A stretch of DNA of 64,000 nucleotides, from NCBI GenBank assembly GCA_041665485.1, contig JBAYIT010000002.1, positions 197,867 through 261,866 on the forward strand, read 5' to 3'. The DNA is from Candidatus Shapirobacteria bacterium. GTDB lineage: Bacteria; Patescibacteriota; Microgenomatia; UBA12405. The notes under the pieces are model-generated. The model was not told the origin of the DNA and ran no database searches. It saw nothing but the letters and a program-made list of their open reading frames with translations. The translations under genes and the position numbers were made by a program. Below, piece after piece: positions 8,118 through 42,429 of the stretch (position 1 is the first letter of the stretch; the number at the start of each line of letters is the position of its first letter).

Positions 8118-8125
8118 TGTTATTT

Positions 8126-8884: not shown

Positions 8885-8886
8885 AG

Positions 8887-17616: not shown

Positions 17617-17620
17617 AACT

Positions 17621-17660
17621 AAACCGCAGGCGAGGGAAACCTTGCTTGCGGTTTTTTTAT
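17621..17660 (+). terminator. Intrinsic terminator after the DUF2958 gene
   Basis: Imperfect hairpin aaaccgcaggcgagg / ccttgcttgcggttt followed by a T7 run. Confidence 0.5.
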
Positions 17661-17664
17661 AGTC

Positions 17665-18426
17665 CTAATTGATTTCTGCTTTTTTGAACAAGCTGATTTC
17701 CATACCATTTTGATCAATTTGATCTGTAGTAGTTGTGTAGAAATTGGCATTGATACCGCCTTCATCTCTGATATGTCTATAGATATGTTTTTCTATAAAT
17801 GCTCTAGTTAAATCATTCCTACAGATAAAGACGATATTAGTAGGTCTGTCTTCATCATTTTCAAAGTACTCCATAAATTTGTTAATTCTGCCTCTAATGG
17901 CATAGCGAGGCATCTTTTCGCTAAATATCTCCCCGACAAAATGCTCTAAGTGTTTTTCAGCTTTATATACATAGGCAAAATCAGGGAGTAATACCCTGAT
18001 AACTCCGTCTATAGGAAAGTCTTGCTGGGTATAAAATTTAAAATCAGCATGGTCTAAAGTATCAATGTTTAAGAGTTTGAGGTAAATATCCGCGATCAAA
18101 ATTGACTTATCAATAAAGCCGTTTGATCGTCGTTTTTCCTGACGAAATTTTTTTAGTAAGGAAACATTTATATCTTTTAGAGTTTTGAGATATTTAATCG
18201 AGTTAGTTGTTAAGTAGTATTTAGCCGGTAGTGTATTTTTCTGATAAGAGTTGTCGTAGATACGGCCAACATAGTTTTTTGCAGTTAAATCTTTTAGCCA
18301 GACATTGATATTTCGGTGATCTTTATTTTTAAGTAGTTTTTGAATTTGAATTCTATTTAAGAAGCGGAATCTATATAACAAGAGAATAATCTCTTTTTGT
18401 TTATTAGTTATATTAGGTATAGTCAT
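17665..18426 (-). CDS. Replication-relaxation family protein (plasmid/ICE-associated, N-terminal wHTH)
   Basis: N-terminal NKQKEIILLLYRFRFLNRIQIQKLL wHTH-like segment and about 250 aa length typical of PF13814-like proteins; adjacent to the coupling ATPase. Confidence 0.45.
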   Translation of the reverse strand: MTIPNITNKQKEIILLLYRFRFLNRIQIQKLLKNKDHRNINVWLKDLTAKNYVGRIYDNSYQKNTLPAKYYLTTNSIKYLKTLKDINVSLLKKFRQEKRRSNGFIDKSILIADIYLKLLNIDTLDHADFKFYTQQDFPIDGVIRVLLPDFAYVYKAEKHLEHFVGEIFSEKMPRYAIRGRINKFMEYFENDEDRPTNIVFICRNDLTRAFIEKHIYRHIRDEGGINANFYTTTTDQIDQNGMEISLFKKAEIN

Positions 18427-18578
18427 ATTAATTTTTAGTAACCTACCTGTATCCTCCCTTTATTTAGGGAGGAGTGTGTTCTCTCCTTATATATAAGGAT
18501 ATAGAGACTACAGAATATTTATTTATTGCCTTTATATAGCGCTAATATTATATCCTATTATCCCAGCCTGCTGGGATA

Positions 18579-21248: not shown

Positions 21249-21347
21249 AATTTAATAAGACTTGGCAGAACAATCTTTCCCGTTAAATTAGTGTGGAGTA
21301 TACCAAATCCTATAAGAATATTAAAGCGACGTAGTGCATAAATCCAC

Positions 21348-21695
21348 TTGACAACTATCCCGAACAAGATATATACTATCTCTAACGAGATAGTTATGGA
21401 AACACTAAAACTACAACAATATCCAGCATTTGAAACACCGCAGAAGTTAGCTACTTCGTATAATCCGCAGCAATCAATCGAAACAGCGATAAATAACATA
21501 TTCCCGTTACAGTCAGAAGAAAACAAAACTTCAAGGATGAGAAAAACTTTGGGAGAATCTGCCCAGTCTCTTTCAAACGAACAAATAGAAACAATCACGT
21601 CAGAATTTCAGTTTTTAATTGACTCCTGGATGGATGAGTTCGAAAAGGAGGTCTTTTGTGGATCGACGTTAAAAGAAATTTTAAATGAAGGCTGA
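21348..21695 (+). CDS. Hypothetical small protein upstream of the serine recombinase (possible directionality factor)
   Basis: ORF with ordinary composition co-directional with the recombinase; the opposing ORF 21245..21598 looks spurious (Cys-rich, odd composition). Confidence 0.3.
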   Translation: MTTIPNKIYTISNEIVMETLKLQQYPAFETPQKLATSYNPQQSIETAINNIFPLQSEENKTSRMRKTLGESAQSLSNEQIETITSEFQFLIDSWMDEFEKEVFCGSTLKEILNEG

Positions 21696-21697
21696 AT

Positions 21698-23230
21698 ATG
21701 GAAATCATCAAAAGCGATAACAGTATTAAAGGAGCAATCATGTATCTAAGGGTATCGACCGAAGAACAAGTCGATAATTTTTCGCTGGAAACTCAAGAAA
21801 AGATTTGTAGACAAGAAGCGGAACGTCGAAACATGGAAGTCATTCAAATCTTTAAAGAGGAAGGTCGATCAGCAAAAAACATTACAGGCAGACCCGTATT
21901 AATTGAAATGCTTGAGTTTTGTCGAAAAAATAAACGGACTGTTGATGCTTTGATCGTGTATCGTTTAGACCGTCTTTCTCGTCAAACCGTTGACTTCCTC
22001 GCTATTCGGAAAAAACTATCAGAAAATCAAATCGCTATTATTTCGACATCAGAGCCAACAGGAAACAGCCCGACAGAAAGATTTATTGAAACGATGTTGG
22101 CGAGTTTCGCTCAAATGGATAACGATGTCCGAAGTGAAAGAACAAAAAATGGCTTAAAAGCACGATTTATGTCTGGTTTAACCAGTGGCGTACCACCAAT
22201 TGGATATATAAGCGAAAATGGCTACGCAGTCAAAGACCCTAAAACTTGGGATAATATCAAAAAGTCCTGGGAACTCATGGGAACAGGAACAAAATCACTC
22301 AAAGAAATGGCTGTTATCATGAATGCATGGGGAGTAAGGCAGCATTTTCATGGCAAGGAACATATTGTAAGGCATCAGGCCATTGGTCGAATGTTTCGGA
22401 ACAAATACTACATCGGTATATTGACTTCAGAGAGATATCCCGAAGAAGTCAAAGGACAACATCTTCCCATGGTTACAGAAGCCCTCTTCTATCGCATTCA
22501 AGCCATCATTGACGGTAGAAATACCAATATTAATGTACCAAACGTACGACATAATCGTGATAACCCGGAATTTCCCCTTAGAAGAATCGTAAAATGTGGT
22601 CTTTGTGACAACCCTATGACTGCTGGATGGAGCAAAGGGAAAAATGCCCGCTATGCTTATTATCGTTGTCAAAGATGTAATAAAGCTCCATCAATTCCAG
22701 CAGATAAAATTAACAATTCCGCCATTAGCTTTTTATCAACCATTTCTCCGACTGACGAGGCTCTTAAAGCTTTTGTTGGTCTTCTTCGTCACACTTACTA
22801 TCAAAGGATTGCTCGACTCCAAAAACGCAAAGATGAGGCAGATGGCGAGTTGAAACGCTTAAAAACCCTTCGACAGTCTTTAATTGAAAAGAATCTTAAC
22901 GGAATATATTCAGACGAGATTTTTCGTGAACAAAATAAACTGATTGAGGAACAGATTGCTAATGTCCAAGTTACCAAAGATGACACATTACTTGCAAAAT
23001 TTAATCTCCAAGATATCGTCAAATTTATGCTGGATAAATTCGCCAATTTGGGAAGAACGTATCAAATGTCAAACCTAAACCAGATCAGAATGCTTCTGTG
23101 TTCAATATGCCCCTCTGGATTGAAGTGGGACAATTTAAGCTACTCGAACACCGAGATTAGCCCGATATATAAATCAATTCGTATGTTTGAAGCAGAGGTC
23201 TGCTCCTTTGGTGCCGGGAAGAGGACTTGA
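21698..23230 (+). CDS. Large serine recombinase (integrase), probable true start at ATG 21740
   Basis: N-terminal resolvase domain with catalytic Ser motif YLRVSTEEQ; recombinase domain; zinc ribbon CGLCDN...YYRCQRC; coiled-coil; 3' end overlaps tRNA-Leu. Confidence 0.8.
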   Translation: MEIIKSDNSIKGAIMYLRVSTEEQVDNFSLETQEKICRQEAERRNMEVIQIFKEEGRSAKNITGRPVLIEMLEFCRKNKRTVDALIVYRLDRLSRQTVDFLAIRKKLSENQIAIISTSEPTGNSPTERFIETMLASFAQMDNDVRSERTKNGLKARFMSGLTSGVPPIGYISENGYAVKDPKTWDNIKKSWELMGTGTKSLKEMAVIMNAWGVRQHFHGKEHIVRHQAIGRMFRNKYYIGILTSERYPEEVKGQHLPMVTEALFYRIQAIIDGRNTNINVPNVRHNRDNPEFPLRRIVKCGLCDNPMTAGWSKGKNARYAYYRCQRCNKAPSIPADKINNSAISFLSTISPTDEALKAFVGLLRHTYYQRIARLQKRKDEADGELKRLKTLRQSLIEKNLNGIYSDEIFREQNKLIEEQIANVQVTKDDTLLAKFNLQDIVKFMLDKFANLGRTYQMSNLNQIRMLLCSICPSGLKWDNLSYSNTEISPIYKSIRMFEAEVCSFGAGKRT

Positions 23231-23525: not shown

Positions 23526-26500
23526 ATGCAATATCAACTATGTATAAAATACATATTAGATATACGTTATTATCTCCCCAAACATCGGACAAAAGACTTG
23601 CCTTTCTCTCGGATAACTGACACAATGATAATGGTCTTTATTCAGACCATTTTTGTCATGCCCATAACCCTTTTTCATCATTTTTTAACCAAAAAAATCA
23701 CCATTGCCAGATGGCAACTTAATTTCTTTGCCTTTATTTGTCTAACCACCGGTCTAATTACAGGATCCTATCTCGCCCTAAAAGGAATCACGGGCATTTT
23801 TGCCACTTCCAACTCTTCAATAACCAAAACTACCGATACTGATTTTAATCAGGGAACATTGTCCTCACTTTCAATTTCCGGTACCGGAAATTCTGCCACC
23901 GTTCTCCTTTCCGGAACAAGTGGATTTTATAACCGTAATTGGGGTTATCGAAAACAAATAATAATCGACCACACTAAAGTGTCAGCCGATTTAACGGACT
24001 TCCCTGTCCTCATCTCCATAACCAACGCCAGCCTCAAAAGCACCTCCAACGGCGGTCATGTCAGTCAAGACGATGGTGACGATATCTTATTTATCGCCTC
24101 CGACAATCTAACCAAACTAAGTCACGAAATTGAAAAATATGACAGCGCCACTGGGCAATTAACTACTTGGGTCAAAATACCCACTCTTTCAAGCTCTGTT
24201 GACACCACCATCTACCTCTACTACGGCAATGTCAGCACCGCTTCAATGCAAAACCCCACCGATGTTTGGAGTAACGGTTATGTTGGTATCTGGCATTTTT
24301 CTACCGGAGCCACCGGCCTTTCCGGAATAGATTCAACTTCCAATGAATACAACATGACTTTAAATGGAGTCACCGCCGGATCAGGCACCATCAACGGTGG
24401 AGCCAATTTTGACGGTAATCACTATTTATCAATTGGAACAAACATTTCTGCCCTGGACAACGCTAGTAATCTCACCATTGAACTTTGGACAAACTTAAAT
24501 GCCTATGGTTCTTATGGAACTGCTTTTTTTCAAAAACTGTCAATCAATAACTGGTCTAACGACATTTTATTTTTCGTCGGTAATGACTCATCTGTAAACC
24601 TTCAAATTGACAAAGGCGCCGACGGAGGGCCTTCTTATCTCGCCACCGACCTTCGCAACAGACAAGTTCACTTGGTAGGTACTTTTGATGGCACTCAAAC
24701 TGGAAACGCCAACCGAATGAAAATCTACGAAAACGGAGTCCAAAAAACACTCTCGTTTGGCTCCTGGTCGGCACCAACAACAACGGCTGATATGAACGGT
24801 TATAGTCAAAAAATCGGCCAATATACCAACGACGGTCCATATAACGCCTATGGTGTTTTTGATGAATTTCGTCTTTCTAGTGTTGCCCGCACCGCCGAAT
24901 GGGTAACCACAGAATACAACAACCAGCTTTCTCCAGCCACTTTTGTTTCTTTCGGTTCGGAAGAATCAGTTTTAGCCACTTCCGGCACTTGGGAATCGCC
25001 AACAAATTCAAATATTATCGATCTAATTTGGAATGGTGGTTGGGGTATCGGAACAAGTGAATCTACCGCCTTTTCGGCAACAATCTCCGGTGTTGGCGCC
25101 AGCAACACTATCGCCTTCGCCATCAAAACAGCCAATTCAGTCGCCAACCTCACTTCAGCCAATTACATTAATCTCGGCACGGCCAATTCCGGCACCACAT
25201 TTACCAAAACAAAGGCTGAATTAGATGCCCTAGGCGTTGCCACCGGCACGGCCAGATATGTTCAGGTCAAAGCCACTTTTGCCCAAACTTCCGACATCAC
25301 TCCTCAATTACATAGTTTTACTCTTTCCTATCTTTCCGACAACTCTGGCCCGGAAACTAACGCTACCAACATTGTCATGCTTCGCGATGTTGGCGGATCA
25401 GCTGTCGCTCAAAATGGTTGGACCAACAACTCCGCTCCTTACTTTTCCTGGACCGCCGGAGCCGACTCTCAATCCAATATTAAAGGATACTGTCTCTCTA
25501 TCACTGCCGGCAATACTAACCCCAATCTGGGAACCGTAATTAGTGACTTTCTCTCCGACAATACCCCATCCACTCTCGATAGCACTCATATTTCATCAGC
25601 CGGCACTCAATGTGGCAACGGCGCCGGATTTCTGGTCACCACCAACAACATTGATTTTGCTCAAACTAAATACCGGGGAACCGCCGTAAGTAAATCATGG
25701 TTAACTTCCTCAAATACCGCCTACTATCTATATATCAAAGCCATCGATAATACCGGAAATATCGCCCCCGATCCCAACACCTCATTCTATTTTCGTTTTG
25801 ACAACACTAATCCGACTAACCCCACTTATTTCTCCATGCCCAGCGACTGGGTTTCTACCCGATCCGTCTCACTTTTATGGGCCTCATCAGGCGACGATGG
25901 CCCGCAAGACAGCAATTCTGATATTGCCGGCCTCCAATATCGAATCGGCACCACTGGTCTCTGGTATGGTGATTCTCATTCCGGAACACAAGACAACACT
26001 GACCTATTAGCCAACGACGGCAATTACAGCATCCAACAGACTCCTGATTTTACTTCTCTGTCTGAAGGAACAAACAATATCTATTTACGCACCTGGGACA
26101 ACGCCGGAAACGCCTCCTCCTCCTATATTTCCGGAACTTTAAAAATCAACACCATCTCTCCCTCTGCCCCCAGAAATTTAAATGTCGAACCAACCGACAA
26201 CACCAGTAATTCCTACTCTTTTACTTGGGACACTCCTTCTACCTTTACCGGCCAAGCCAGCAATCTTAGTTATTGTTACACCATCAATACTCTTCCCACT
26301 TCCACCACCTGTACATATACCGGAATTGGCACCACCTCACTTTCCGCTGATGCCTTTGCCACCCAGCCGGAAACAAACACTCTTTACCTTGTCGCCAAAG
26401 ACGAGGCAGGCAACATTAATTACAATGCCTATACCTCCATTGCTTTCACTTATTCCGGTACTGCCCCGGGGTTGCCACGAAACGTTGACGTCTCAGACAT

Positions 26501-28031
26501 CTCTATTAAGTCAACTTCCAACTGGAAGTTAGCTATTTCTTGGGATATTCCTTCCTCGGTTGGCGCCGGAGTTTCCTCATATAAAATTTATCGTTCAACC
26601 ACCAACACCACTTGTTCCGCCAGTCCTTCCTTGTTTACTTTAATTGGAACCAGTGCCGGAACCTCCTATTCAGACATTAGTCTCTCTCAAGTTACTTATT
26701 ATTACTGCATTAAAGCCTGTGACAGTGCCTCAAATTGTTCTGCCTATTCTTCAACTGTTTCCAAGATTCCAACCGGAAAATACTTCACCTCAGCCGGCCT
26801 CACTTCCGGTCCAGCAGCCGGATCAATTACCACCAAAAAAGCCACTATCACCTGGAGTACTGACCGTTCTTCGGATTCAAAAATTGCTTTCGGCACAGCC
26901 AGCAATTCTTATGGATCCGACGAAGTCTCAAACTCCTCCCAAGTCACTTCTCACACTGTCAATCTAACCAACCTTAAGGCAGGAACAACCTACTACTACA
27001 AAGCCAAGTGGACAGACGAAGATGGTAACACCGGCACCTCCGACGAGAAAACTTTTACCACCGAATCAGCTCCCACCGTCAAGGACGTTTTAGCAAAAAA
27101 TATTGGTCTATCCACTGCTACCATCCAATTTACTTCCAAAGGCGCCACCAAAATCAAAATTTATTACGGAACAAACACTAGTTTTGGAGGTGGCAAAGAA
27201 ATTTCTACTTCTACTACTGAAACTACCTATACTACCGAATTAGTTGGCCTCAACGATGGCACTAAATACTATTACAAAATTAATACTTTCGATAGCGAGT
27301 CGGGTGAGTATGAAGGAACTATTCTCGATTTCACCACCCTTCCTCGTCCCAAAATCAGTAATGTTCGAATCCAGCAAGTCGCCAATACCGCCCAATCTAC
27401 CATTCTGGTTACCTGGTCCACCAACACCGAAGTCTCTTCAATTATCACTTATTACCCTCAGAATCAACCAGATGGTGCCAAAGATGAAGTCAACATCGCT
27501 CTTATTAAAGGCGATCACCGTTTGATTATTCGCGGTCTTTTACCCGAAACCGACTATATTTTAGTAGTTAAAGGTCGTGACAAAATTGGCAATGAAGCCA
27601 CCAGCGATTTTCAAAGTCTAACCACCGCCACCGACACTCGTCCGCCACAAATTTCTGAACTTCGGGTTGAAAGTTCAAATATTCCTCCCGTAACTCAAAC
27701 CGCTCAAAACCAAACGGCCCAGCTCGTAGTTTCTTGGAACACCGACGAGCCGGCTACCACCCAAGTTGAATTCAGTGAAGGTACTGGCGTCACTTACAGC
27801 CAAAAAACCCAAGAAGACAGCAATCTAACCCTCAATCATATCGTCATTATTTCCAATCTCTCTCCCTCAAAGGTTTATCACCTCCGTGCCATTTCCCGCG
27901 ACAAAGCCGAGAACTTAAGTAGCTCGATTGATGTTGTCACCATCACTCCTAAGGCCACTGAAAACGCCCTTAATCTCGTTATCACCAACCTTGAACAAGC
28001 CTTCAGCTTTTTGGGGGGGTTAAAAGACTAA
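23526..28031 (+). CDS. Giant (about 1500 aa) membrane-anchored surface protein paralog with N-terminal LamG/ConA-like domain and FN3-like repeats; no DGR variable region
   Basis: TM segment with GSYLAL motif as in the 8887..13767 protein; LamG-like region; C-terminal roughly 500 aa near-identical in pattern to the paralog; true start possibly downstream of 23526. Confidence 0.75.
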   Translation: MQYQLCIKYILDIRYYLPKHRTKDLPFSRITDTMIMVFIQTIFVMPITLFHHFLTKKITIARWQLNFFAFICLTTGLITGSYLALKGITGIFATSNSSITKTTDTDFNQGTLSSLSISGTGNSATVLLSGTSGFYNRNWGYRKQIIIDHTKVSADLTDFPVLISITNASLKSTSNGGHVSQDDGDDILFIASDNLTKLSHEIEKYDSATGQLTTWVKIPTLSSSVDTTIYLYYGNVSTASMQNPTDVWSNGYVGIWHFSTGATGLSGIDSTSNEYNMTLNGVTAGSGTINGGANFDGNHYLSIGTNISALDNASNLTIELWTNLNAYGSYGTAFFQKLSINNWSNDILFFVGNDSSVNLQIDKGADGGPSYLATDLRNRQVHLVGTFDGTQTGNANRMKIYENGVQKTLSFGSWSAPTTTADMNGYSQKIGQYTNDGPYNAYGVFDEFRLSSVARTAEWVTTEYNNQLSPATFVSFGSEESVLATSGTWESPTNSNIIDLIWNGGWGIGTSESTAFSATISGVGASNTIAFAIKTANSVANLTSANYINLGTANSGTTFTKTKAELDALGVATGTARYVQVKATFAQTSDITPQLHSFTLSYLSDNSGPETNATNIVMLRDVGGSAVAQNGWTNNSAPYFSWTAGADSQSNIKGYCLSITAGNTNPNLGTVISDFLSDNTPSTLDSTHISSAGTQCGNGAGFLVTTNNIDFAQTKYRGTAVSKSWLTSSNTAYYLYIKAIDNTGNIAPDPNTSFYFRFDNTNPTNPTYFSMPSDWVSTRSVSLLWASSGDDGPQDSNSDIAGLQYRIGTTGLWYGDSHSGTQDNTDLLANDGNYSIQQTPDFTSLSEGTNNIYLRTWDNAGNASSSYISGTLKINTISPSAPRNLNVEPTDNTSNSYSFTWDTPSTFTGQASNLSYCYTINTLPTSTTCTYTGIGTTSLSADAFATQPETNTLYLVAKDEAGNINYNAYTSIAFTYSGTAPGLPRNVDVSDISIKSTSNWKLAISWDIPSSVGAGVSSYKIYRSTTNTTCSASPSLFTLIGTSAGTSYSDISLSQVTYYYCIKACDSASNCSAYSSTVSKIPTGKYFTSAGLTSGPAAGSITTKKATITWSTDRSSDSKIAFGTASNSYGSDEVSNSSQVTSHTVNLTNLKAGTTYYYKAKWTDEDGNTGTSDEKTFTTESAPTVKDVLAKNIGLSTATIQFTSKGATKIKIYYGTNTSFGGGKEISTSTTETTYTTELVGLNDGTKYYYKINTFDSESGEYEGTILDFTTLPRPKISNVRIQQVANTAQSTILVTWSTNTEVSSIITYYPQNQPDGAKDEVNIALIKGDHRLIIRGLLPETDYILVVKGRDKIGNEATSDFQSLTTATDTRPPQISELRVESSNIPPVTQTAQNQTAQLVVSWNTDEPATTQVEFSEGTGVTYSQKTQEDSNLTLNHIVIISNLSPSKVYHLRAISRDKAENLSSSIDVVTITPKATENALNLVITNLEQAFSFLGGLKD

Positions 28032-28034
28032 TTT

Positions 28035-28742
28035 ATGAACAAAACTGTCATTCAGATCCAAAACCTTTCCAAATCCTTTCCTGTCGGCAATCAAAAGGTG
28101 CCGGTTCTTAAAAATCTTAACTTCGGGATTGAAAGTGGTGACTTCTGTATTATCGTCGGTCCTTCTGGTTGTGGTAAATCAACTCTGCTTCACACTATTC
28201 TTGGGCTGGAAAAGCCCACCTGGGGCACCTGTCACCTTTTATCACAAGACCTTTATCACGACATGGATGAAGACCAAATAAGTGAGTTTCGTAAAAACCA
28301 TATCGGCATGATTTATCAACAGCCAAATTGGATAAAGTCACTCACTGTTCTGGAAAATGTTGCTTTTCCCTTGGTTTTAATGGGCAAACCCCACTCCGAA
28401 AATTTGATCAACGCCAATAACTTACTTACCGCCATCAAAATGGATCCCTGGGCCTCCTACCTTCCCACTCAACTCTCAAGCGGTCAGCAACAAAAGGTTT
28501 CTTTAGTTCGCGCATTAATTAGCAACCCCGAAATAATCATTGCCGATGAGCCCACCGGTAATCTGGATTTTGAATCAGGTCAGGAACTAATGCAACTTCT
28601 GGTCGATCTTAACCATCAAAAAGGCAAAACTATTCTTATGGTTACTCACGATCTTGAATACCTTAAATTCGCCAAAACGATACTAAAAATGTTCGACGGC
28701 AACATTGTCAGTAAATATAAACAAAAGCAACATGATCGATAG
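28035..28742 (+). CDS. ABC transporter ATP-binding protein (paralog of 8126..8884)
   Basis: GPSGCGKST, LSSGQQQKVSLVRAL, IIADEPTGNLD, VTHD. Confidence 0.9.
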   Translation: MNKTVIQIQNLSKSFPVGNQKVPVLKNLNFGIESGDFCIIVGPSGCGKSTLLHTILGLEKPTWGTCHLLSQDLYHDMDEDQISEFRKNHIGMIYQQPNWIKSLTVLENVAFPLVLMGKPHSENLINANNLLTAIKMDPWASYLPTQLSSGQQQKVSLVRALISNPEIIIADEPTGNLDFESGQELMQLLVDLNHQKGKTILMVTHDLEYLKFAKTILKMFDGNIVSKYKQKQHDR

Positions 28743-30582
28743 AACACGTAAAATTATCAGTTTTATTCTTCTTCTTACTGTTTATTTATTTACCAAACTA
28801 GGAAAATATATTTTTCCCAAACTAAGGCTTAATCAACGATTAATCTCCATTTTAGACATCCACAGCTCCAATTCCATTTCCGGTATCGAGATTATTGATC
28901 TTGCTCTACGAAACATGAAATCAAAGAAAACAAGAACTTTAATAACTATCGGTGGAATGACTCTAGGCATTGGCGCTATTGTTTTTCTTGTTTCTATTGG
29001 TTATGGTTTCGAAAAACTTGTCATCACCAGAGTTGCCAGGCTCGAAGAAATGCGTCAGGCAGACATCACCACCCAACTCGGAGGCAAAGTGAAAATTGAC
29101 GACAAAACCCTTTCCGATCTCAAAGGAATTCAAACCGTCGAGTCCGTTTTTCCTTTAATTGCTGTTGTCGGTCGTGTCAGTTACCAGAAATCGGTCACCG
29201 ACACTGCCGTCTACGGTGTCACTAGTGAGTATCTCAATCAATCAGCCATCAAACCCGTTAGTGGTCAAATTTTTAATAGTAACGATCTCTCTCTTGATGT
29301 TTATCAGCCAATTGGAAAAGTTGCCGGAATTACCAGCGAAACAGAAGTTGGAACCATCGGTGAAAAAATTCAAGATGTTGACTTCACTATTAATCCGGAA
29401 AGTTGGATTAAAGTTCGGGCCAATCCAAACACAAATTCTCAAATTTTAGGTTACACCAAAAGAGTTGAAGGCCAATCAAGCGGGCAGGAAGTATGGGGAG
29501 GGGAATACCAAATCGATAACAACCAAAAGCTTGAAAAATGGATTAAAGCCCCCGTTCTTCTCTGGAAGAAAGAGGGAGCTCAATATTTAGTTATCAACGG
29601 CCAAGACAACAGCCAAATTCAAGAAACTGGCTATTTTGCCGAAATCAATTTACAAATCTCTGGCGCCAGTCTAAAAGAACCTGATGTTTTAGGGGTTGTC
29701 AGTAACCAAAGCAATCTCGATTGGGTAGAGATAGCTTCAGAATCAGCCACTCTGTCTCCTCCGGCCACAAAAATTGTCGATCTCTCTTCTCAAGCCAAAC
29801 GGCAAGCCGTTGTCAACCGGGCCATGCTCTCTGTCTTGGGAATTAAAGAAAGCGAGGCCCTTACTAAAAGGTTTAACGCCTCCTTTATTGTTGTCAGCGA
29901 TCTCCTTAACGACCCCACCACCAACATCGAGTCAAGTCAGGCAGAATATTCCATTGTTGGTGTCACTCCCGACGAAAAAACACCTGTCTTTTATGTTCCG
30001 TTCATTGACCTTAGAACCCTCGGTATCACCAACTTTTCTCAAGTTAAAGTCGTCGTTAAAAATCAAAACGAACTTTCCAAAACCAGGCGCCAAATCGAAT
30101 CAATGGGCTACATCACCCGTTCTGTTGCTGACACTGTTGCCCAAATCAATTCACTGTTCGCCACCGCCCGAACTATTCTCATGGTTTTAGGTATGGTTGC
30201 CCTGGGAGTTGCTGCCTTGGGAATGTTCAACACCCTAACTATTTCTCTTTTAGAAAGAACCCGTGAAGTTGGATTAATGAAAGCAATGGGCATGAAATCT
30301 TCTGAAGTTCAGGAGTTGTTTTTAGCAGAGTCAGTAATTATGGGTTTTCTCGGAGGTGTTTTTGGTATTCTTCTCGGCTGGATTTTAGGAAAATTTATTG
30401 GTCTTTCTCTCTCTTTCTTTTCTTTTTTTAAGGGAGTTGGAGTTATCGATGTTGCCCACATTCCCACTCCTTTTATTATCACTATTGTTTTCCTTTCTCT
30501 CTTAGTTGGTCTATTAACCGGCATTTATCCCGCCAAAAGATCAACCAGAATTTCCGCCCTCAACGCCCTAAGATACGAATAA
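28705..30582 (+). CDS. MacB/FtsX-family ABC permease (paralog of 6090..8117)
   Basis: Same architecture and long stretches of identity with the 6090..8117 product. Confidence 0.75.
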   Translation: MSVNINKSNMIDRTRKIISFILLLTVYLFTKLGKYIFPKLRLNQRLISILDIHSSNSISGIEIIDLALRNMKSKKTRTLITIGGMTLGIGAIVFLVSIGYGFEKLVITRVARLEEMRQADITTQLGGKVKIDDKTLSDLKGIQTVESVFPLIAVVGRVSYQKSVTDTAVYGVTSEYLNQSAIKPVSGQIFNSNDLSLDVYQPIGKVAGITSETEVGTIGEKIQDVDFTINPESWIKVRANPNTNSQILGYTKRVEGQSSGQEVWGGEYQIDNNQKLEKWIKAPVLLWKKEGAQYLVINGQDNSQIQETGYFAEINLQISGASLKEPDVLGVVSNQSNLDWVEIASESATLSPPATKIVDLSSQAKRQAVVNRAMLSVLGIKESEALTKRFNASFIVVSDLLNDPTTNIESSQAEYSIVGVTPDEKTPVFYVPFIDLRTLGITNFSQVKVVVKNQNELSKTRRQIESMGYITRSVADTVAQINSLFATARTILMVLGMVALGVAALGMFNTLTISLLERTREVGLMKAMGMKSSEVQELFLAESVIMGFLGGVFGILLGWILGKFIGLSLSFFSFFKGVGVIDVAHIPTPFIITIVFLSLLVGLLTGIYPAKRSTRISALNALRYE

Positions 30583-30825: not shown

Positions 30826-31557
30826 ATGAAAACAAAATTATTACTAGGATTATTGATAGTGGTCGTTATAGGAGGAATCATCTTGTGGAATTCAGGAAAA
30901 AAGACTCAATCTTTAACTACAAATTCTGAGCCTACCCCTCTTCAGGAAGAAAACTCCCAACAAAAAGACATTGACGCGATAAGATCCTTCATGAGTGAGC
31001 CCAATCTTGAATTATCTTTCATCAACATCGGTTTACCGACACAATATTTTAGAGTCGGGAAAATCACAAAAGTAGGGAACGGTGAAAATATGGATGCAGT
31101 TGACACTTGGACCCGCAACATTAACGTCTATGACCAGAAAGAATTAATTAATAAAGAATGTTCTGTTTATGAATTTAATACTGATGCCAGAAATCACAAT
31201 TTAACTGCCGTAATTATCCGTGGTTTGCGACAAAATGAAATTGAAAACCTTAAAAATTCAGGAAAAACGTGCGATTTCAATTCTAAAAATGTTCAAAAAT
31301 TAACCAAAACACAGGCAGAAACTATTGCCATGGGTTATCTAAAACGAGCATTACCAAATTTCGATCAAATTAAAGATCAATTCGTCTATTCCTCCCAAAA
31401 CAACGGCGAATCACACGAATGGCTTTGGCAGGATAAAAACTACAAATTACCAGAAGGTTTAAGTAGCCGACCATACCCAGGCCCAATTATCCGGATATCT
31501 TTTTATGGTGATAATCAGATTCAATATTGGAACACCACGTCACTTTTTGCAAATTAA
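30826..31557 (+). CDS. Hypothetical protein with N-terminal TM/signal anchor
   Basis: ORF with N-terminal hydrophobic segment; no motif recognised. Confidence 0.4.
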   Translation: MKTKLLLGLLIVVVIGGIILWNSGKKTQSLTTNSEPTPLQEENSQQKDIDAIRSFMSEPNLELSFINIGLPTQYFRVGKITKVGNGENMDAVDTWTRNINVYDQKELINKECSVYEFNTDARNHNLTAVIIRGLRQNEIENLKNSGKTCDFNSKNVQKLTKTQAETIAMGYLKRALPNFDQIKDQFVYSSQNNGESHEWLWQDKNYKLPEGLSSRPYPGPIIRISFYGDNQIQYWNTTSLFAN

Positions 31558-31571
31558 ATGCAAAAAACTAA

Positions 31572-33818
31572 TTATGAGTCGAACGTAATTGTCTCTTTAG
31601 CTTTATTGAAAATTTCAACTCTATTATCTATATCAACTCTGCTTACTAGCCAGCCGCGCAGCTCACATTGACGAGTAAAGTCATTAATTCTATTAACTCC
31701 GTTAATTTCTTTTAGCGTCACTACTAGACCAAATTTCGTACCTACTCCAAGCCGCTTAATTAGCCTTTCTTTTGTTTTGATACTTATTCCCCACAAACCA
31801 TGTTCGTAAACTTTACGCGCACCAATTTTGTCTGTGTACAATTCACTTATATGTTTCGTATTGTCCCATTTTCGATAGAATTGCCTTGCATTACCCTCAT
31901 ATATATAATGTCTCTCACCGTCGTCGGCACTTTGTACGTTTTTATTTATAGATTTAATCCCATCTTTCACCACTCTTCCTACATATATATCTAATTCGGT
32001 GTTCGTATAATCAACACCCTGATTGACTGAACAACTAGGGAAATAGCACAGAGTGGCCTTTGCAACAAAGGGGTGTTTTTCATTATGTATAGGGACAGGT
32101 AAATTGTAAGTATACGTATCCCACTTTTCTGAAATACCACTAATGACAAACTTTATTTCGCTATCACTTGACTTGACAATATCATCAATTTTCTTTGGCA
32201 CTACACCATGTCCTACCAGTGGCGCTAGTTTAAGATCGTTTCCCACACCATTCCATCCAGCTGCAGCATCTACAATTAACGCTTTCGCAACCTCACGACT
32301 AAGACCCAGCACTTCTATTAGGTATGCAACTTTTCGAGCCACCCATGGTGCAGCAAATGAAGTACCACAATGAAGTTCTCTGCCAGTTGGAGTATAAACA
32401 CAAACATAATCATTTGTGTCACCGCCAAAACTACTAACATCTGGTTTGTTAAAAAATGATAAAACCAAGCCTTTTCTAGTATAAGATGCAGGAGTTCCAG
32501 CACTATTGACCGAATTTACTACTATAGCGTTAATTGAATCGGCTGGTGAACCTATCATCTTCTCAACTTTAGGATCATCATAGCGCTTATTAGTTCCAGC
32601 AATCACAAAAATAACGTCATTTTCATACTGAATCTGATCCAATATTGCCGCTTCTGGTGATATAAAATTAGGATTAATTTCCCTATCAGATCCCAACGAT
32701 AAATTCCACACCTTTATATCAGTATTAGCCACAACAATCTCCTTTATTGCCTTCATTATAGAAAAAGAACTATACTGGCCTTGAGCAGCTACACCAAAAT
32801 GTCTCACTCTAAATCTTCCGCAACCATCATCTAATTCAGGGTTAATGGTCGGTCCATCAACAATAATTGAACTTACAGAGGTTCCATGGACATAGTCATC
32901 AGAAACTGTTGGTATTTCATCGTTAATCATTTTTCTAAAATCAACCCATTCAGAAAAATAGACTCGCTCGTCAAATAGCGTATCAATAACACCAATAATA
33001 GGTTCACCATTTGGAGGATCAATTGTAATTGTTGGATCGTTCACTGTACTACCAACAATATCATCATGACTTAGTTTAGATAAATCCTCAGTTGCCATAG
33101 CTATTAGATATGGCGCCTTTTCAGACAACAAAGTAATTTGATCTGGGTATAGGAGTAGAGTAGTTTCACTTATTATTTTATCTGGCTGTACATTAATACC
33201 AATTTTTTTCATTAAGCCAACCAAATCTACACTAGTTTTATATATAGTAATTATTGACTGGTTGGTAGTGTTTGCACTATTGTCAGGTATAGTAAAATCT
33301 TCTACGTAGTGAGAGTCGACAATCAGATTGCAAAAAGTAGTTTTAGCAATCCTATAATGCGAATATTTTATATCTTTTTTTTGTAGATTCTCAATCAAGT
33401 CATGAGTAATTGATCCAGCAAACTCTTCATTCAAGAGCTTTATGCAACTTTGTATATTTTCAATTGTATGATTGATAACTTCTTTGCCAACATAATGAGT
33501 AATAATATGTTTTATCTTCTTATCATTAGCAAATCTCGCACCAACAACTGTATTATTTATAGAGTCACCGCCTCCCGAAAGGAAACCTTTTATTCTATTA
33601 CTCTTAGCTATAACATCGGTATAACAGACATCAATAAGACAACCCCCGATAATATTTTGACCTACCCAATAATTATACAAATTCTTAAACTCGTCCAACA
33701 ACGACTGAAGTTTTTTGGAGGTAATAGGCGTGGCATTCTTGGGTATGTTTCTATAACCTGGTTTGTTATCACTTGATCGCTGTTGGAATGTTCCTTTCAA
33801 TTGAAGAATGTTATTCAT
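31572..33818 (-). CDS. Subtilisin-like (S8) serine peptidase with roughly 270-aa N-terminal domain of unknown function; IetS-like
   Basis: Catalytic triad contexts GVIDTLFDE (Asp), HGTSVSSII (His), GTSFAAPWVA (Ser); directly downstream of the AAA ATPase gene. Confidence 0.7.
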   Translation of the reverse strand: MNNILQLKGTFQQRSSDNKPGYRNIPKNATPITSKKLQSLLDEFKNLYNYWVGQNIIGGCLIDVCYTDVIAKSNRIKGFLSGGGDSINNTVVGARFANDKKIKHIITHYVGKEVINHTIENIQSCIKLLNEEFAGSITHDLIENLQKKDIKYSHYRIAKTTFCNLIVDSHYVEDFTIPDNSANTTNQSIITIYKTSVDLVGLMKKIGINVQPDKIISETTLLLYPDQITLLSEKAPYLIAMATEDLSKLSHDDIVGSTVNDPTITIDPPNGEPIIGVIDTLFDERVYFSEWVDFRKMINDEIPTVSDDYVHGTSVSSIIVDGPTINPELDDGCGRFRVRHFGVAAQGQYSSFSIMKAIKEIVVANTDIKVWNLSLGSDREINPNFISPEAAILDQIQYENDVIFVIAGTNKRYDDPKVEKMIGSPADSINAIVVNSVNSAGTPASYTRKGLVLSFFNKPDVSSFGGDTNDYVCVYTPTGRELHCGTSFAAPWVARKVAYLIEVLGLSREVAKALIVDAAAGWNGVGNDLKLAPLVGHGVVPKKIDDIVKSSDSEIKFVISGISEKWDTYTYNLPVPIHNEKHPFVAKATLCYFPSCSVNQGVDYTNTELDIYVGRVVKDGIKSINKNVQSADDGERHYIYEGNARQFYRKWDNTKHISELYTDKIGARKVYEHGLWGISIKTKERLIKRLGVGTKFGLVVTLKEINGVNRINDFTRQCELRGWLVSRVDIDNRVEIFNKAKETITFDS

Positions 33819-33821
33819 ATA

Positions 33822-34862
33822 TTAAGTGTTTAACTCTCTTGATACTTGACTCTTGGAGACACCCGTCAATATTTCTATTTCTCTGACGGTAAAGCCACCA
33901 TTTTGTAATGTTTTTAAGTCTAGATTTCTTCTTTTCGAGTTGATAGATTCGTACAATTTTTTTAGATAGTCATATTCATTAGTCGGATCACTGAATGCAA
34001 TGGAAGTCTTAATTATGTTTTTTAAATCACCTGGATAAGGAATATCGTTCATGGTTGAGATTATCTTCTTGAATAGCCTCATATTACGTCCAACAAACTT
34101 AAATCTCACCAACAGATCATTCAATATAGAATCGGCAACTTCAAGCAATTCTTCTCTACTGTATCTATTGAAGTTAATAATCGAGTCAAATCTCCTAAGT
34201 AGTGCCTTATCAAACTGCCCAAATAAATTGGTCGTGGCTATAAGCACGACACTGTCAGTTAAACCATCTAGACCTTTTAGAACCGAAGATGTTACTCGTC
34301 CCATTTCTCGCAAATCATTAGAATTTACTCTATCTAGAGCTATTGCATCTATCTCATCAAATAAAATAATTACCTTTTCTGGTTGCGGTAGACTTCGCAA
34401 CTCCATAAAAACAGAAGCAATATTTTTCGACGTTTGTCCCAATTTACTGTCAATGATACTATCAAAATCTATTACATATAATTCACGTTCAAGAATACGA
34501 GCAATTTGTTTTGCAGTCTCCGTTTTACCCGTCCCAGGGTCACCTTCAAACAAGAATTTGTTCACTCCTGCATTGTGATTAATCGAATTAATAACACCAA
34601 CAATGTCATTTTTTATTAAAATCGGAAGAGGAAAAGAGTTTCCATTGGTTAAGTTTACCTTTGTAAAAAATGAGGAATTATATTCATTATTCTGTGGAAC
34701 AAAGGTATTTGTACCAGATAATAAAGCCATAATATATTGAGCCAACTCCGAGTCACCAAGAGAGTCAAGGTATCTAGCTATATCATAAGCTTCGTTCCTA
34801 AAACCAGCCTCGTTTTTCTCGGCATGATATTTTATTAAATTCAAAATATTTTTTTTACGCAT
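33822..34862 (-). CDS. AAA+ ATPase with C-terminal HTH-like tail; IetA-like
   Basis: Walker A GDPGTGKTETAKQIA, Walker B ILFDEIDAIA, arginine finger region; 3-bp gap to the S8 peptidase gene. Confidence 0.7.
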   Translation of the reverse strand: MRKKNILNLIKYHAEKNEAGFRNEAYDIARYLDSLGDSELAQYIMALLSGTNTFVPQNNEYNSSFFTKVNLTNGNSFPLPILIKNDIVGVINSINHNAGVNKFLFEGDPGTGKTETAKQIARILERELYVIDFDSIIDSKLGQTSKNIASVFMELRSLPQPEKVIILFDEIDAIALDRVNSNDLREMGRVTSSVLKGLDGLTDSVVLIATTNLFGQFDKALLRRFDSIINFNRYSREELLEVADSILNDLLVRFKFVGRNMRLFKKIISTMNDIPYPGDLKNIIKTSIAFSDPTNEYDYLKKLYESINSKRRNLDLKTLQNGGFTVREIEILTGVSKSQVSRELNT

Positions 34863-35084
34863 CTGTAAATTAATTTAACCATATTAACAACAATGGGACA
34901 AGTACTCAATAAAGTGGGACATATTATTGAAATTAAAAACTGGATTATCAGATATAGGTCCGACTCCGGTTACCGGTATGAATTTTTCCAGGCTAAAGAC
35001 AAAACGCTAAAAATAGTGGCTAGAACTCGGGATAATGTTGATTTCTTGAGGAAAATAGGAGAAAACACAAAACCATTTCGCTAT

Positions 35085-35159
<75 letters not shown>

Positions 35160-35245
35160 AAAACCAGTTAACAGTTTTCAGTTCACCGTTTACCGTAAAA
35201 TTTCTTTTTACTGTTAACTGTTAACGGTAAACTATAAACGGTAAT

Positions 35246-35318
35246 GTGCCGAAGGTTGGACTCGAACCAACATCCCAGGTTTTTCAGACCAGTGCCGTGA
35301 CCATCTTGGCTACTTCGG
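35246..35318 (-). tRNA. tRNA-Phe (anticodon GAA), copy 1
   Basis: Acceptor gccgaag/cttcggc, anticodon loop ctGAAaa with a U-U mismatch in the anticodon stem, T-arm ggttcgagtcc. Confidence 0.65.
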
Positions 35319-35391
35319 CTAGAAGTGACTTTATTATATCAATTCAATCTTTAATTCGTAATTCTAAGTTGAAGATTGAAGATTGATCTAG

Positions 35392-35473
35392 TGCCGCTAG
35401 TGGGACTTGAACCCACACGCCTTTCGGCATACGCTTCTGAGACGTACGTGTATACCAATTTCACCACAGCGGC
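35392..35473 (-). tRNA. tRNA-Leu (anticodon CAG), long variable arm
   Basis: Acceptor gccgctg, anticodon stem tacgt/gcgta with loop ctCAGaa, T-arm gggttcaagtccc. Confidence 0.7.
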
Positions 35474-35527: not shown

Positions 35528-36238
35528 TCAAGCATTTTCAAACGCTTCCAAGTTAGCTAAAAACCAAGGACTATTTACATCCCCTGATTTTGAGCACATT
35601 TCAATCGGGCCAAGATAATTAAACATTCTTCCAATTCTAATCATCTTTTTACCAAAAACAATGTCATATTTTGTATCCAGCTTTTTTCGAACAGTCAAAT
35701 AGCACTCCTCTAGTTCGTCCTGCCAGCCCAAAGGGTAATATTTTTTCTGCCAGTTTGGATTCGTACAATGCAAATCACCCAAAAATCGGCCAATATCATG
35801 TTCCGCAAACCCTCCTCTCATATTTTCCCAATCAATTATTTTAACCACCCGGCCGTCTGTAACCACATTTTGAGGTAGGAAATCATCATGAATCAACTGA
35901 TAATTACTCTCAATGATTTCGAGTGATCTTTTAAGTTCATTCATCTGCTTTTCTGGTAAGTTCAAATTCAAATCAAGCGAATTAGCATAATACTTTTTAT
36001 CAAACTTAATAAAATCACATTTTATTTCTTTAACGAAATGGTGAAATTTGGCTATAGCCTCAACCGCCATTAGATAATATTTCTTTTCTTTACCAATTAA
36101 ATCTCCTCCCTCAAACCAGGGAAAATAGCCAATATTATTTTCTATTTTTTCCGGAAACAAGACAAAATCAAACCTCGAATCTCCCTTTAATAGTTCATAA
36201 AATCGAATTTCACTGGAATTAAGAGCCTTTTGCTTCAT
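35528..36238 (-). CDS. Aminoglycoside/small-molecule phosphotransferase (APH)-family kinase-like protein
   Basis: HDDFLPQNVV (catalytic-loop HxDxxxxN) and IIDWEN (DxE-type) motifs. Confidence 0.55.
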   Translation of the reverse strand: MKQKALNSSEIRFYELLKGDSRFDFVLFPEKIENNIGYFPWFEGGDLIGKEKKYYLMAVEAIAKFHHFVKEIKCDFIKFDKKYYANSLDLNLNLPEKQMNELKRSLEIIESNYQLIHDDFLPQNVVTDGRVVKIIDWENMRGGFAEHDIGRFLGDLHCTNPNWQKKYYPLGWQDELEECYLTVRKKLDTKYDIVFGKKMIRIGRMFNYLGPIEMCSKSGDVNSPWFLANLEAFENA

Positions 36239-36483
36239 TATTTTTCGACCAATCTTTTATAAACAAAAGCTTTACCAGATCCCGACTTAAGGTAAAGTTC
36301 AAATTCTTCAGCTTTTTGCTTATCTTTAAAGCCACAAAACCAAACTAACTTCCAAGGAACGTGACCTTTTGTAAATTTCGACTGGCCGTTATTATGCTCC
36401 TCAACTCTTTTTTTTACATCTCTCGTATACCCATAGTATAAAAGTCCAGATTTCAAACTCCTAAGTATATAAACGTAATACAT
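36238..36483 (-). CDS. GIY-YIG nuclease-domain small protein
   Basis: MYYVYILRSLKSGLLYYGYT...RVEEHN GIY-YIG motifs; ATG at 36483 (track ORF extends to a TTG at 36495). Confidence 0.7.
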   Translation of the reverse strand: MYYVYILRSLKSGLLYYGYTRDVKKRVEEHNNGQSKFTKGHVPWKLVWFCGFKDKQKAEEFELYLKSGSGKAFVYKRLVEK

Positions 36484-36492
36484 TTTCTTTCG

Positions 36493-36635
36493 CAATCGTC
36501 CGAAGCTTTAAATAGAGCAATCGTCCGAAGCTTTAAATAGAGCAATCGTCCGAAGCTTTAAATAGAGCAATCGTCCGAAGCTTTAAATAGAGCAATCGTC
36601 CGAAGCTTTAAATAGAGCAATCGTCCGAAGCTTTA
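36493..36635. repeat. Perfect tandem array of a 25-bp unit (caatcgtccgaagctttaaatagag), about 5.7 copies
   Basis: Five identical head-to-tail copies plus a partial sixth, starting 10 bp upstream of the GIY-YIG start codon. Confidence 0.9.
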
Positions 36636-36647
36636 GCGTAGGACGAG

Positions 36648-36718
36648 AGCGGGTAGGGGGAATCGGACCCCCGCCGAGAGATTGGAAATCTTTCGTTCTA
36701 CCACTAAACTATACCCGC
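36648..36718 (-). tRNA. tRNA-Gly (anticodon TCC)
   Basis: Acceptor gcgggta/tacccgc, anticodon loop ttTCCaa (one A-C mismatch in stem), T-arm ggggg tccgatt ccccc. Confidence 0.6.
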
Positions 36719-36763
36719 ACTACTGCTTATTTTATCAGAACTTCTGCTTTATAATACACCTAG

Positions 36764-36849
36764 GCCGCTGTGGCGAAACTGGTATACGCGCAAGACTTAA
36801 AATCTTGTGGTCTCAAAAACCGTGTGGGTCCGATTCCCGCCAGCGGCAC
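36764..36849 (+). tRNA. tRNA-Leu (anticodon TAA), long variable arm
   Basis: Acceptor gccgctg/cagcggc, anticodon stem caaga/tcttg with loop ctTAAaa. Confidence 0.7.
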
Positions 36850-36916
36850 ACCGTCTGTTACTGCAAACACACTTAGCGGGTTTACCCGCCGTAGTCCCGC
36901 AGTAGCGGGACGTAGG

Positions 36917-36990
36917 CGGGGATTGGCGCAATTGGCTAGCGCGCACGGTTTGGGACCGTGAGGTTGCTGGTTCGAATCCAGTATCCCCGA
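36917..36990 (+). tRNA. tRNA-Pro (anticodon TGG)
   Basis: Acceptor cggggat/atccccg, anticodon stem cacgg/ccgtg with loop ttTGGga, T-arm gctgg ttcgaat ccagt. Confidence 0.7.
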
Positions 36991-37023
36991 CTTCGACCGC
37001 CGTAGTTTTTAAAACGAAGGCGG

Positions 37024-42049: not shown

Positions 42050-42057
42050 ATTATTAG

Positions 42058-42130
42058 TGGGTTGCGCGAGACTCGAACTCGCGACCGATCGCTTAAGAGG
42101 CGATTGCTCTACCAACTGAGCTAGCAACCC
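42058..42130 (-). tRNA. tRNA-Lys (anticodon CTT)
   Basis: Acceptor gggttgc/gcaaccc, anticodon stem atcgc/gcgat with loop ctCTTaa. Confidence 0.75.
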
Positions 42131-42131
42131 G

Positions 42132-42203
42132 TACGCCTAGGAGGAATTGAACCTCCATCACTAGTTCCGAAGACTAGTACTCTATCCATTGAGCTATAGG
42201 CGC
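42132..42203 (-). tRNA. tRNA-Arg (anticodon TCG)
   Basis: D-arm gctcaatggatagagt, anticodon stem ctagt/actag with loop ctTCGga, T-arm ggaggttcaattcctcc. Confidence 0.65.
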
Positions 42204-42204
42204 G

Positions 42205-42278
42205 TATCCCCAGCAGGAATCGGACCTGCGACCTCTTCCTTAGAAGGGAAGCGCTCTATCCAACTGAGCTATGGGGAC
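42205..42278 (-). tRNA. tRNA-Arg (anticodon TCT)
   Basis: D-arm gctcagttggatagagc, anticodon stem cttcc/ggaag with loop ctTCTaa, T-arm gcaggtccgattcctgc. Confidence 0.7.
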
Positions 42279-42326
42279 AAGACAGCTTATTGTAGCAAAA
42301 TATTGATAAAATAGGCTTACACACGA

Positions 42327-42408
42327 GCCGCAGTGGTGAAATTGGTATACACGTACGCTTTAGGAGCGTATGCCGAAAGGCGTGGAGGTTCAAGTCCTCT
42401 CTGCGGCA
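42327..42408 (+). tRNA. tRNA-Leu (anticodon TAG), long variable arm
   Basis: Acceptor gccgcag/ctgcggc, anticodon stem tacgc/gcgta with loop ttTAGga. Confidence 0.7.
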
Positions 42409-42429
42409 CATTTCTGCTACACTATTCTT

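Follow-up and report, generated by a model that had tools for sequence, protein, structure and literature searches.

A divergent IetAS-family ATPase and protease module, probably acquired horizontally, in a Candidatus Shapirobacteria genome

We studied a stretch of 64,000 nucleotides from a Candidatus Shapirobacteria bacterium (assembly GCA_041665485.1, contig JBAYIT010000002.1, positions 197,867 to 261,866; this whole 64-kb stretch is called the window below) and, within it, two adjacent genes, ietA and ietS, that encode an AAA+ ATPase and a subtilisin-like protease of family S8. We consider it likely that these genes arrived by horizontal transfer as a self-contained module of two genes, which is a member of the IetAS family, belongs to a divergent clade common in Patescibacteria and has the proposed role in defence or addiction. 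According to the account given in PMC13069673, IetAS was first described on Agrobacterium Ti plasmids as a plasmid-stabilising toxin-antitoxin system, the protease being the toxin and the ATPase the antitoxin (Yamamoto et al. 2009). As an anti-phage system, IetAS (also written IteAS) is referenced to Gao et al. 2020, and DefenseFinder lists it as Gao_Iet. PMC13069673 also reports that defence by IetAS needs the protease activity and that an ietA mutant proved uncloneable, and it describes the anti-phage mechanism as still unknown. The ietAS system of Bacillus cereus works through abortive infection, and expression of yosG of phage SPbeta makes it toxic (bioRxiv 10.1101/2022.08.27.505566).

The family assignment comes from two collections of protein models, and for PADLOC it refers to the hidden Markov model matches of the two proteins, taken apart from the system rules of the pipeline. 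The best PADLOC match of the ATPase is the IetA model PDLC02196 (3.4e-43), whose positions 5-369 of 374 align with amino acids (aa) 4-345 of the protein; three other IetA models match at 1e-19 to 1e-29. For the protease it is the IetS model PDLC02197 (1.2e-58), whose positions 243-748 of 749 align with aa 260-735. NCBIfam likewise ranks IteA (NF042959) and IteS (NF042956) first. An earlier note on this DNA, made from the letters without database searches, had compared the pair with IetA and IetS and named PADLOC as a way to check the comparison; the top matches in both collections agree with it. On this basis we classify the pair as a member of IetAS in the broad sense used by PADLOC, from a clade that appears distant from the validated proteins. 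The exact window proteins are present in NCBI, from a contig of 335 kb in a Candidatus Shapirobacteria metagenome-assembled genome (MAG), under the labels "ATP-binding protein" and "S8 family peptidase".

The two genes are co-oriented with the ATPase first, and the junction between them reads ...ACT TAA TAT ATG..., which leaves the gap of 3 bp that the earlier note had given (coordinates of all features are collected in Table 1). Because the genes are only 3 bp apart, translational coupling is suggested. The adjacency of the two genes, their orientation and the order of ATPase then protease are the same in every homologous locus examined.

The protease IetS matches Pfam Peptidase_S8 over residues 273-522 (2.3e-32) and carries the active-site motifs GVIDT (D279), HGTS (H311), WNLSLG for the oxyanion hole (N372) and GTSFAAP (S487), these four residues being invariant across 54 IetS homologues. 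The full Asp/His/Ser triad read earlier from the sequence is therefore found throughout the alignment, and the Asp/His/Asn/Ser active site of the protease encoded by ietS is predicted to be intact. An AlphaFold2 model of IetS (mean predicted local distance difference test (pLDDT) 80.4, predicted template modelling score 0.81) was compared as a whole with known structures using Foldseek and matches Tk-SP, KP-43, Kex2, S1P and subtilisin BPN' with E values down to 3e-17; the first four of these are pro-subtilisins and kexin-type enzymes that also bear a C-terminal beta domain. The Asp-His-Ser order, the oxyanion Asn and the subtilisin fold, by which MEROPS defines family S8, are thus all present. 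A PDB search by sequence gave nothing at E <= 0.01, so IetS is regarded as a divergent S8 enzyme, and neither this search nor Foldseek found a solved IetS-like structure. No signal peptide, transmembrane or hydrophobic segment was found in IetS or in IetA, and both proteins are accordingly predicted to be cytoplasmic.

In front of the catalytic domain, IetS has a large N-terminal domain that is predicted with confidence when modelled alone (pLDDT 85.7). It has no Pfam match, Foldseek against PDB and BFVD gave nothing below E = 0.06, and hhalign left it unaligned with both the canonical Acidovorax IteS and the Agrobacterium IetS; the earlier description of a large N-terminal part of no known family is thus accurate. 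HMMER, run exhaustively against 1.84 billion representative sequences, recovered this domain in 383 representative clusters. Its place is N-terminal in every case, and the complete proteins that contain it are all about 730-770 aa long, the remainder having the look of contig fragments. Because the domain is always N-terminal in proteins of this size across the 383 clusters, it appears to be private to this clade of IetS. The lengths of the complete proteins also rule out its fusion to other effectors.

The ATPase IetA matches Pfam AAA (PF00004, 1e-25), with a Walker A motif GDPGTGKT at aa 107-114 and the motif ILFDEID at aa 166-172. Across 26 IetA homologues the Walker A and Walker B residues, the sensor-1 residue N212, the arginines R223-R224 and the residues K140-L141-G142 are invariant, the last being pore-loop-like and placed where a pore loop is expected. 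The ATPase motifs pointed out in the earlier note are therefore kept through the whole alignment. The closest solved cores are those of the classic-clade proteins Afg2, Cdc48 and p97 (E values of about 1e-24 to 1e-18), and the features that define this clade, namely Walker A and B, the sensor-1 Asn and the arginines of the second region of homology, are all present, so that ietA is predicted to encode a catalytically intact AAA+ ATPase of the classic type. Residues 1-95 have no significant Pfam match and show neither alignment with Acidovorax IteA nor similarity to the N-terminus of IetA of B. cereus m1293. At the other end, the protein closes with a tail resembling a helix-turn-helix (HTH) and showing the conserved pattern GFTVREIEILTGxSKSQVSREL.

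The clade is widely distributed. There are many full-length relatives, with 57-79% identity for IetS and 74-86% for IetA, among MAG and metagenomic proteins that bear the labels Magasanikbacteria, Azambacteria, Nomurabacteria and Saccharibacteria. Oral taxon 488 is among those of Saccharibacteria, and members of a single Saccharibacteria IetA cluster occur on 306 contigs. A pair of this kind had been thought unusual for a reduced genome; this does not hold, as the clade is common in lineages of the Candidate Phyla Radiation (CPR). Other hosts are Acidithrix ferrooxidans (Actinobacteria), Clostridium and a MAG labelled Janthinobacterium. The pair is carried by 56-kb mobilizable plasmids of Clostridium perfringens (57% identity), where it lies beside ParA/ParB, and further plasmid relatives occur in Carnobacterium (49%) and Macrococcoides (43%), RepB also being among the plasmid neighbours of the clade. 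Ten viral contigs of IMG/VR hold relatives at 44-59%. One of the ten (UViG_2541047411_000012, locus L097) is a bona fide, complete-looking tailed-phage genome, in which the pair is found at 6948-10223, between the replication genes and the genes for the small terminase, portal and head; it may serve this phage as a weapon against its competitors. None of the papers listed in a literature search mentions ietAS in Patescibacteria.

Across these loci the only shared genes are ietA and ietS themselves, and the other neighbours of the pair in the window do not travel with it; relatives of the 243-aa gene that lies downstream of ietS, for instance, were found at 17 metagenome loci (50-80% identity), in other contexts and never with ietAS adjacent. 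The company of the pair varies from genome to genome: at one locus its neighbours are an integrase, an EcoRI-type methylase and GmrSD, at another it lies near DruA (Druantia), at a third it adjoins Shedu SduA_C together with a methylase and GmrSD, and at yet another it lies between two serine recombinases with a methylase present, while in a Saccharibacteria genome it lies between serS and hpf/secA. The clade thus shows the patchiness, the variable flanks and the mobile and defence neighbours that characterise accessory or defence modules.

In the window itself, the pair has a GC content of 0.35 and a GC content at third codon positions (GC3) of 0.26-0.29, against a GC3 of 0.38-0.49 in neighbouring core genes. 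The nearby trio of genes for a surface protein, an ABC ATPase and a MacB-like permease is kept in 80 Patescibacteria species representatives, and in none of the 80 do IetA or IetS occur within 10 kb of it. The best MacB match in those 80 genomes has 63% identity, whereas IetA of the window is 76% identical to its Acidithrix copy and 84% identical to its Magasanikbacteria copy; because of this difference, the identity of IetA across phyla appears to be far above what vertical descent would allow. The earlier note had proposed that a real defence pair should be sporadically distributed among related genomes, and that a housekeeping pair with conserved synteny in all relatives would refute it. 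The distribution is indeed patchy, and no such conserved pair was seen, since the 80 syntenic loci lack it and the pair moves between phyla, plasmids and phage. As for the defence-island context that had also been proposed, it describes other loci of the family, which hold defence genes, better than the window locus, for which it is true only in part, the immediate neighbours having no PADLOC match.

A promoter- and operator-like element precedes ietA. It contains two direct GTCCCA boxes (34915-34920 and 34894-34899, 21 bp from start to start), the second of which lies inside the 17-bp spacer between TTGAGT (34904-34909) and an extended -10-like sequence TG-n-TAATAT (34881-34889); from this arrangement we infer a promoter at 34881-34920. 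The pattern GTCCC-N16-GTCCC is observed once in the window, against 0.01 occurrences expected. Upstream of ietA the element recurs at this position in the loci of Magasanikbacteria, of other Patescibacteria, of Acidithrix and of Saccharibacteria, as well as in all seven viral loci that have upstream DNA; the Clostridium plasmid carries it too, its spacing being reduced by one base. Acidovorax (iteA), Agrobacterium and the most distant Macrococcoides copy lack it in front of the ATPase gene. Because a non-coding element is here conserved across phyla along with the module, a regulator encoded by the module is indicated, and the IetA tail is proposed as the binder because it is the sole candidate regulator that the module encodes. 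The GTCCCA boxes are thus probably an operator for the HTH-like tail of IetA.

In the canonical-type Agrobacterium locus (L093), a perfect 10-bp inverted repeat, AAATAACTAT/ATAGTTATTT, was observed upstream of the ATPase gene at 2068, and a caspase-family gene adjoins the locus. As this palindrome differs from the GTCCCA boxes, it suggests that each clade of IetAS may have its own operator.

These observations can be arranged in a proposed mechanism, for which the catalytic motifs, the cytoplasmic location, the coupling of the genes, their co-mobility and the conservation of the cis-element were computed here, all functional steps being inferred. By homology with other IetAS systems, IetS would be a protease toxin that IetA keeps inactive in an ATP-dependent manner. 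During infection, a protein made by the phage would disturb this restraint, the most likely sensor being the N-terminal part of one of the two proteins, either the domain of IetS that is specific to this clade or the first 95 residues or so of IetA. The freed IetS would then cleave cellular proteins and arrest growth before the phage cycle is completed, in other words cause abortive infection. Where a plasmid or prophage carries the pair, this property would stabilise the element, through addiction and the exclusion of competitors. The C-terminal HTH-like tail of IetA would bind both GTCCCA boxes and so autorepress the operon. Autorepression is common among the antitoxins of toxin-antitoxin systems.

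Several observations weigh against this interpretation of the pair as a mobile defence module. Neither protein reaches the equivalog cut-off of its NCBIfam model (114.6 against 510 bits for IteA and 132.1 against 900 for IteS). Alignment to IetA and IetS representatives, as the earlier note had recommended, shows that the cores are homologous, but identity to the Acidovorax proteins is only 36% for IetA (AAA core only) and 25% for IetS (from residue 262 to the C-terminus), and the N-terminus of IetS is left unaligned. Since homology with canonical IetS does not extend to this domain, the system here may have another trigger and another regulation. The toxicity of IetS, its neutralisation by IetA and the protease-dependent protection are known from distant homologues only (PMC13069673; 10.1101/2022.08.27.505566). 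Concerning regulation, the HTH-like tail recognised in the earlier note is well conserved in the homologues, but its assignment as HTH is sub-threshold: the matches, all to HTH families (MarR_2, HTH_5, HTH_7, HTH_23, IclR, LacI), have E values of 0.007-0.13, the best being MarR_2 at 0.007. The promoter hexamers TTGAGT and TAATAT are also below the threshold of a consensus scan. Around the pair, a PADLOC scan of its neighbours in the window found no model matching any immediate neighbour, a search of the flanks for direct repeats of att type, made up of the 3' end of tRNA-Gly, gave nothing convincing, and no empty site from the same species was present among the 17 metagenome loci of relatives of the 243-aa gene, all of which belong to other species.

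The pair could alternatively be an addiction module and nothing else, acting by post-segregational killing as a remnant or servant of a mobile element and giving no protection against phages; this we hold to be rather unlikely. IetAS was originally a plasmid-stability toxin-antitoxin (PMC13069673), members of the clade lie on plasmids beside ParA/ParB and RepB as well as within a phage genome, and the window has a conjugative-element-like region with a serine recombinase 8-30 kb away from the pair. The pair in the window is nevertheless chromosomal: tRNA genes lie on one side and core genes on the other, and genes for a recombinase or for replication are missing from its immediate vicinity. 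In other genomes restriction-modification, GmrSD, Shedu and Druantia genes adjoin it, and distant homologues do confer protection against phages (PMC13069673; 10.1101/2022.08.27.505566). Addiction and abortive infection are, moreover, not mutually exclusive.

It is much less credible that the genes form a housekeeping pair for quality control or maturation, an AAA+ unfoldase that feeds or matures its own protease, such as a SpoVK-type pair or EccA with mycosin of type VII secretion. An AAA+ ATPase working with a protease is a common housekeeping arrangement and weak NCBIfam matches to SpoVK (32 bits), EccA (22 bits) and mycosin (26 bits) do exist, but they are far under the cut-offs of 279-467 bits (467 for EccA and 279 for mycosin), no ESX or sporulation genes were seen nearby and IetS has neither a signal peptide nor a transmembrane anchor, so both SpoVK and EccA with mycosin were rejected. 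A housekeeping role is also contradicted by the lack of the pair at the syntenic site in all 80 related genomes, by its atypically low GC3 and by its cross-phylum identity of 57-86%, much higher than that of core genes (the MacB-like neighbour reaching at best 63% within the phylum). Most improbable of all, in our opinion, is that IetS is exported for the episymbiosis of CPR bacteria, to attack or feed on a host, with IetA as its chaperone. CPR bacteria live as epibionts and have numerous surface and secreted proteins, and the window does encode large surface proteins and has genes that resemble those of type IV secretion; the protease, however, lacks any signal peptide or hydrophobic segment, and a secreted protease was rejected for this lack of an export signal. 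The pair is also present, at 57-63% identity, in free-living Actinobacteria, on Clostridium plasmids and in a phage, and the family that the protease matches is IetS.

Table 1. Positions of the IetAS module, its parts and the other features of the 64-kb window.
Feature	Position	Strand	Remarks
ietA	33822-34862	-	AAA+ ATPase, 346 aa; predicted antitoxin/regulator; open reading frame (ORF), PADLOC and Pfam
IetA N-terminal region, aa 1-95	34578-34862	-	Clade-conserved in 26 homologues
IetA AAA+ core, aa ~100-260	34083-34565	-	G107-K113-T114, D169-E170, N212, R223-R224 and K140-L141-G142
IetA C-terminal HTH-like tail, aa 322-344	33831-33899	-	GFTVREIEILTGVSKSQVSRELN; kept in 26/26 homologues
ietS	31572-33818	-	S8 subtilisin-like protease, 748 aa, predicted cytoplasmic; predicted toxin/effector; ORF, PADLOC and Pfam
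IetS N-terminal alpha/beta domain, aa 1-245	33084-33818	-	Clade-specific; candidate sensor or inhibitory domain
IetS linker, aa 246-262	33033-33083	-	Disordered, pLDDT <50; poorly conserved in the alignment
IetS S8 catalytic domain, aa ~270-525	32244-33011	-	D279, H311, N372, S487; Pfam and Foldseek
IetS C-terminal beta-rich domain, aa ~545-748	31575-32186	-	Common to canonical IetS; strands predicted
Promoter/operator-like element	34881-34920	-	Two direct GTCCCA boxes upstream of ietA
243-aa protein, no family match	30826-31557	+	Downstream neighbour, convergent with ietS
tRNA-Gly, tRNA-Phe, tRNA-Leu	35084-35473		First starts 222 bp upstream of ietA
APH/choline-kinase-like protein	35528-36238	-	Low GC3
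Small GIY-YIG protein	36238-36495	-	Low GC3
Three further tRNAs	36647-36991		1.8 kb further on
M23 peptidase	147-917		Conjugative-element-like region
VirB4/TraG-type P-loop ATPase	914-3049		Conjugative-element-like region
Weak TrbL/VirB6-like protein	3836-5599		Conjugative-element-like region
DUF2958 protein			Within the conjugative-element-like regions
Replic_Relax relaxase-like protein	17665-18426		
VirD4/TraG-type coupling protein	18579-21248		
Large serine recombinase	21698-23230		Abuts tRNA-Leu and tRNA-Val
Reverse transcriptase	14010-15167	-	Generic PADLOC RT model 6e-41; Pfam RVT_1 6e-17; 17 kb from the pair
Paralogous operon	6090-13767	-	Giant surface protein, then ABC ATPase, MacB/FtsX permease
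Paralogous operon	23526-30582	+	Giant surface protein, then ABC ATPase, MacB/FtsX permease

The surroundings of the pair are rich in tRNA genes, and the adjacent cluster mentioned in the earlier note consists of the two trios of Table 1. An Rfam scan of the 64-kb window found no non-coding RNAs other than tRNAs, of which there are 14 genes in total, several of them tightly clustered (for example at 42057-42409). The genes for the 243-aa, APH-like and GIY-YIG proteins have a GC3 of 0.30-0.33 and are missing from the corresponding region of relatives in synteny, and for this reason the whole tRNA-rich patch at 30.8-36.5 kb looks accessory. Between the GIY-YIG gene and tRNA-Gly(TCC), at 36492-36640, lies a perfect 25-nt tandem repeat, GCAATCGTCCGAAGCTTTAAATAGA, in about six copies. 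A 92-aa ORF on the forward strand (34893-35171), called in the ENA record, is probably spurious, since it overlaps tRNA-Gly(GCC) as well as, on the other strand, the promoter region of ietA. The GC skew of the window is strongly negative from about 23 kb onward.

Farther from the pair, two regions (147-5599 and 17107-23230) contain conjugative-element-like genes and may represent an integrated element with a type IV secretion system of Patescibacteria; the part at 15-22 kb has a low GC content (about 0.35). The reverse transcriptase is the only PADLOC match among the scanned neighbour ORFs, with weaker matches to the DRT and UG classes, and may belong to an intron, a retron or a DRT, Rfam having found no group II intron RNA at the gathering threshold in the window. 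The giant surface proteins of the two paralogous operons are 1626 and 1501 aa long, the 1501-aa one having DUF2341 and fn3 repeats.

Reportedly, very few defence systems have been identified in Patescibacteria, and only one phage has been described (PMC12366544). A well-conserved clade of IetAS that circulates through CPR lineages, Gram-positive plasmids and phages is of interest in this respect, as public annotation does not label its proteins as defence, and the operator-like element and the private N-terminal domain of IetS provide handles on regulation and sensing. As a more speculative proposal, which we put forward with some doubt, the clade could be a distinct, self-regulated subtype of IetAS, with its private N-terminal domain as infection sensor, an HTH-tailed IetA and a GTCCCA operator kept across phyla; spread in Patescibacteria, including oral Saccharibacteria, it may be among the main recognisable abortive-infection systems there. 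If true, this subtype would offer a tractable entry to the biology of CPR phages and to the mechanism of IetAS.

Compared with known systems, the pair shares with ietHAS (PMC13069673) the core of IetA and IetS, together with toxin-antitoxin-like behaviour in the proposed mechanism, but ietHAS has an SNF2 helicase, whereas the window pair and every homologous locus examined are without an adjacent helicase gene. The neighbours in the window are tRNA-Gly upstream and the convergent 243-aa protein downstream, and an ietHAS variant was ruled out. With ietAS of B. cereus m1293, the source of the abortive-infection mode assumed here, the likeness lies in the named system and its two-gene architecture. 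The comparison was made with a supplement sequence of about 400 nt, for which the plasmid copy was not found, and the first 61 residues of IetA, the sole part compared, show no significant similarity to IetA of the window. For Agrobacterium, the L093 homologue on A. tumefaciens plasmid pAtG3_79a stands in for the original pTiC58 pair: it has the same adjacent ATPase and S8 protease on a mobile replicon, and the S8 and C-terminal domains of its IetS are homologous to those of the window (hhalign probability 99.0%, through residue 707), whereas identity is about 25% and both the N-terminal domain and the upstream element are other ones.

The genes that NCBI annotates as iteA and iteS on plasmid p1-T1 of Acidovorax sp. 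T1 offer a further comparison. They too have the ATPase followed by the protease, tightly spaced or overlapping, and the products are of nearly the same lengths (387 and 751 aa, against 346 and 748 aa in the window), with a homologous AAA+ core, an S8 domain whose triad is in register and a C-terminal beta domain; hhalign aligns residues 272-731 of IetS with Acidovorax IteS at a probability of 99.5%. The differences concern the N-terminal 260-270 residues or so of IetS and the N-terminal region of IetA, which do not align. The surroundings of the Acidovorax genes are mobile and rich in defence genes, Shedu and an integrase flanking them. The system itself is already known, and what the window adds is a member of a divergent clade, the kinds of systems remaining unchanged.

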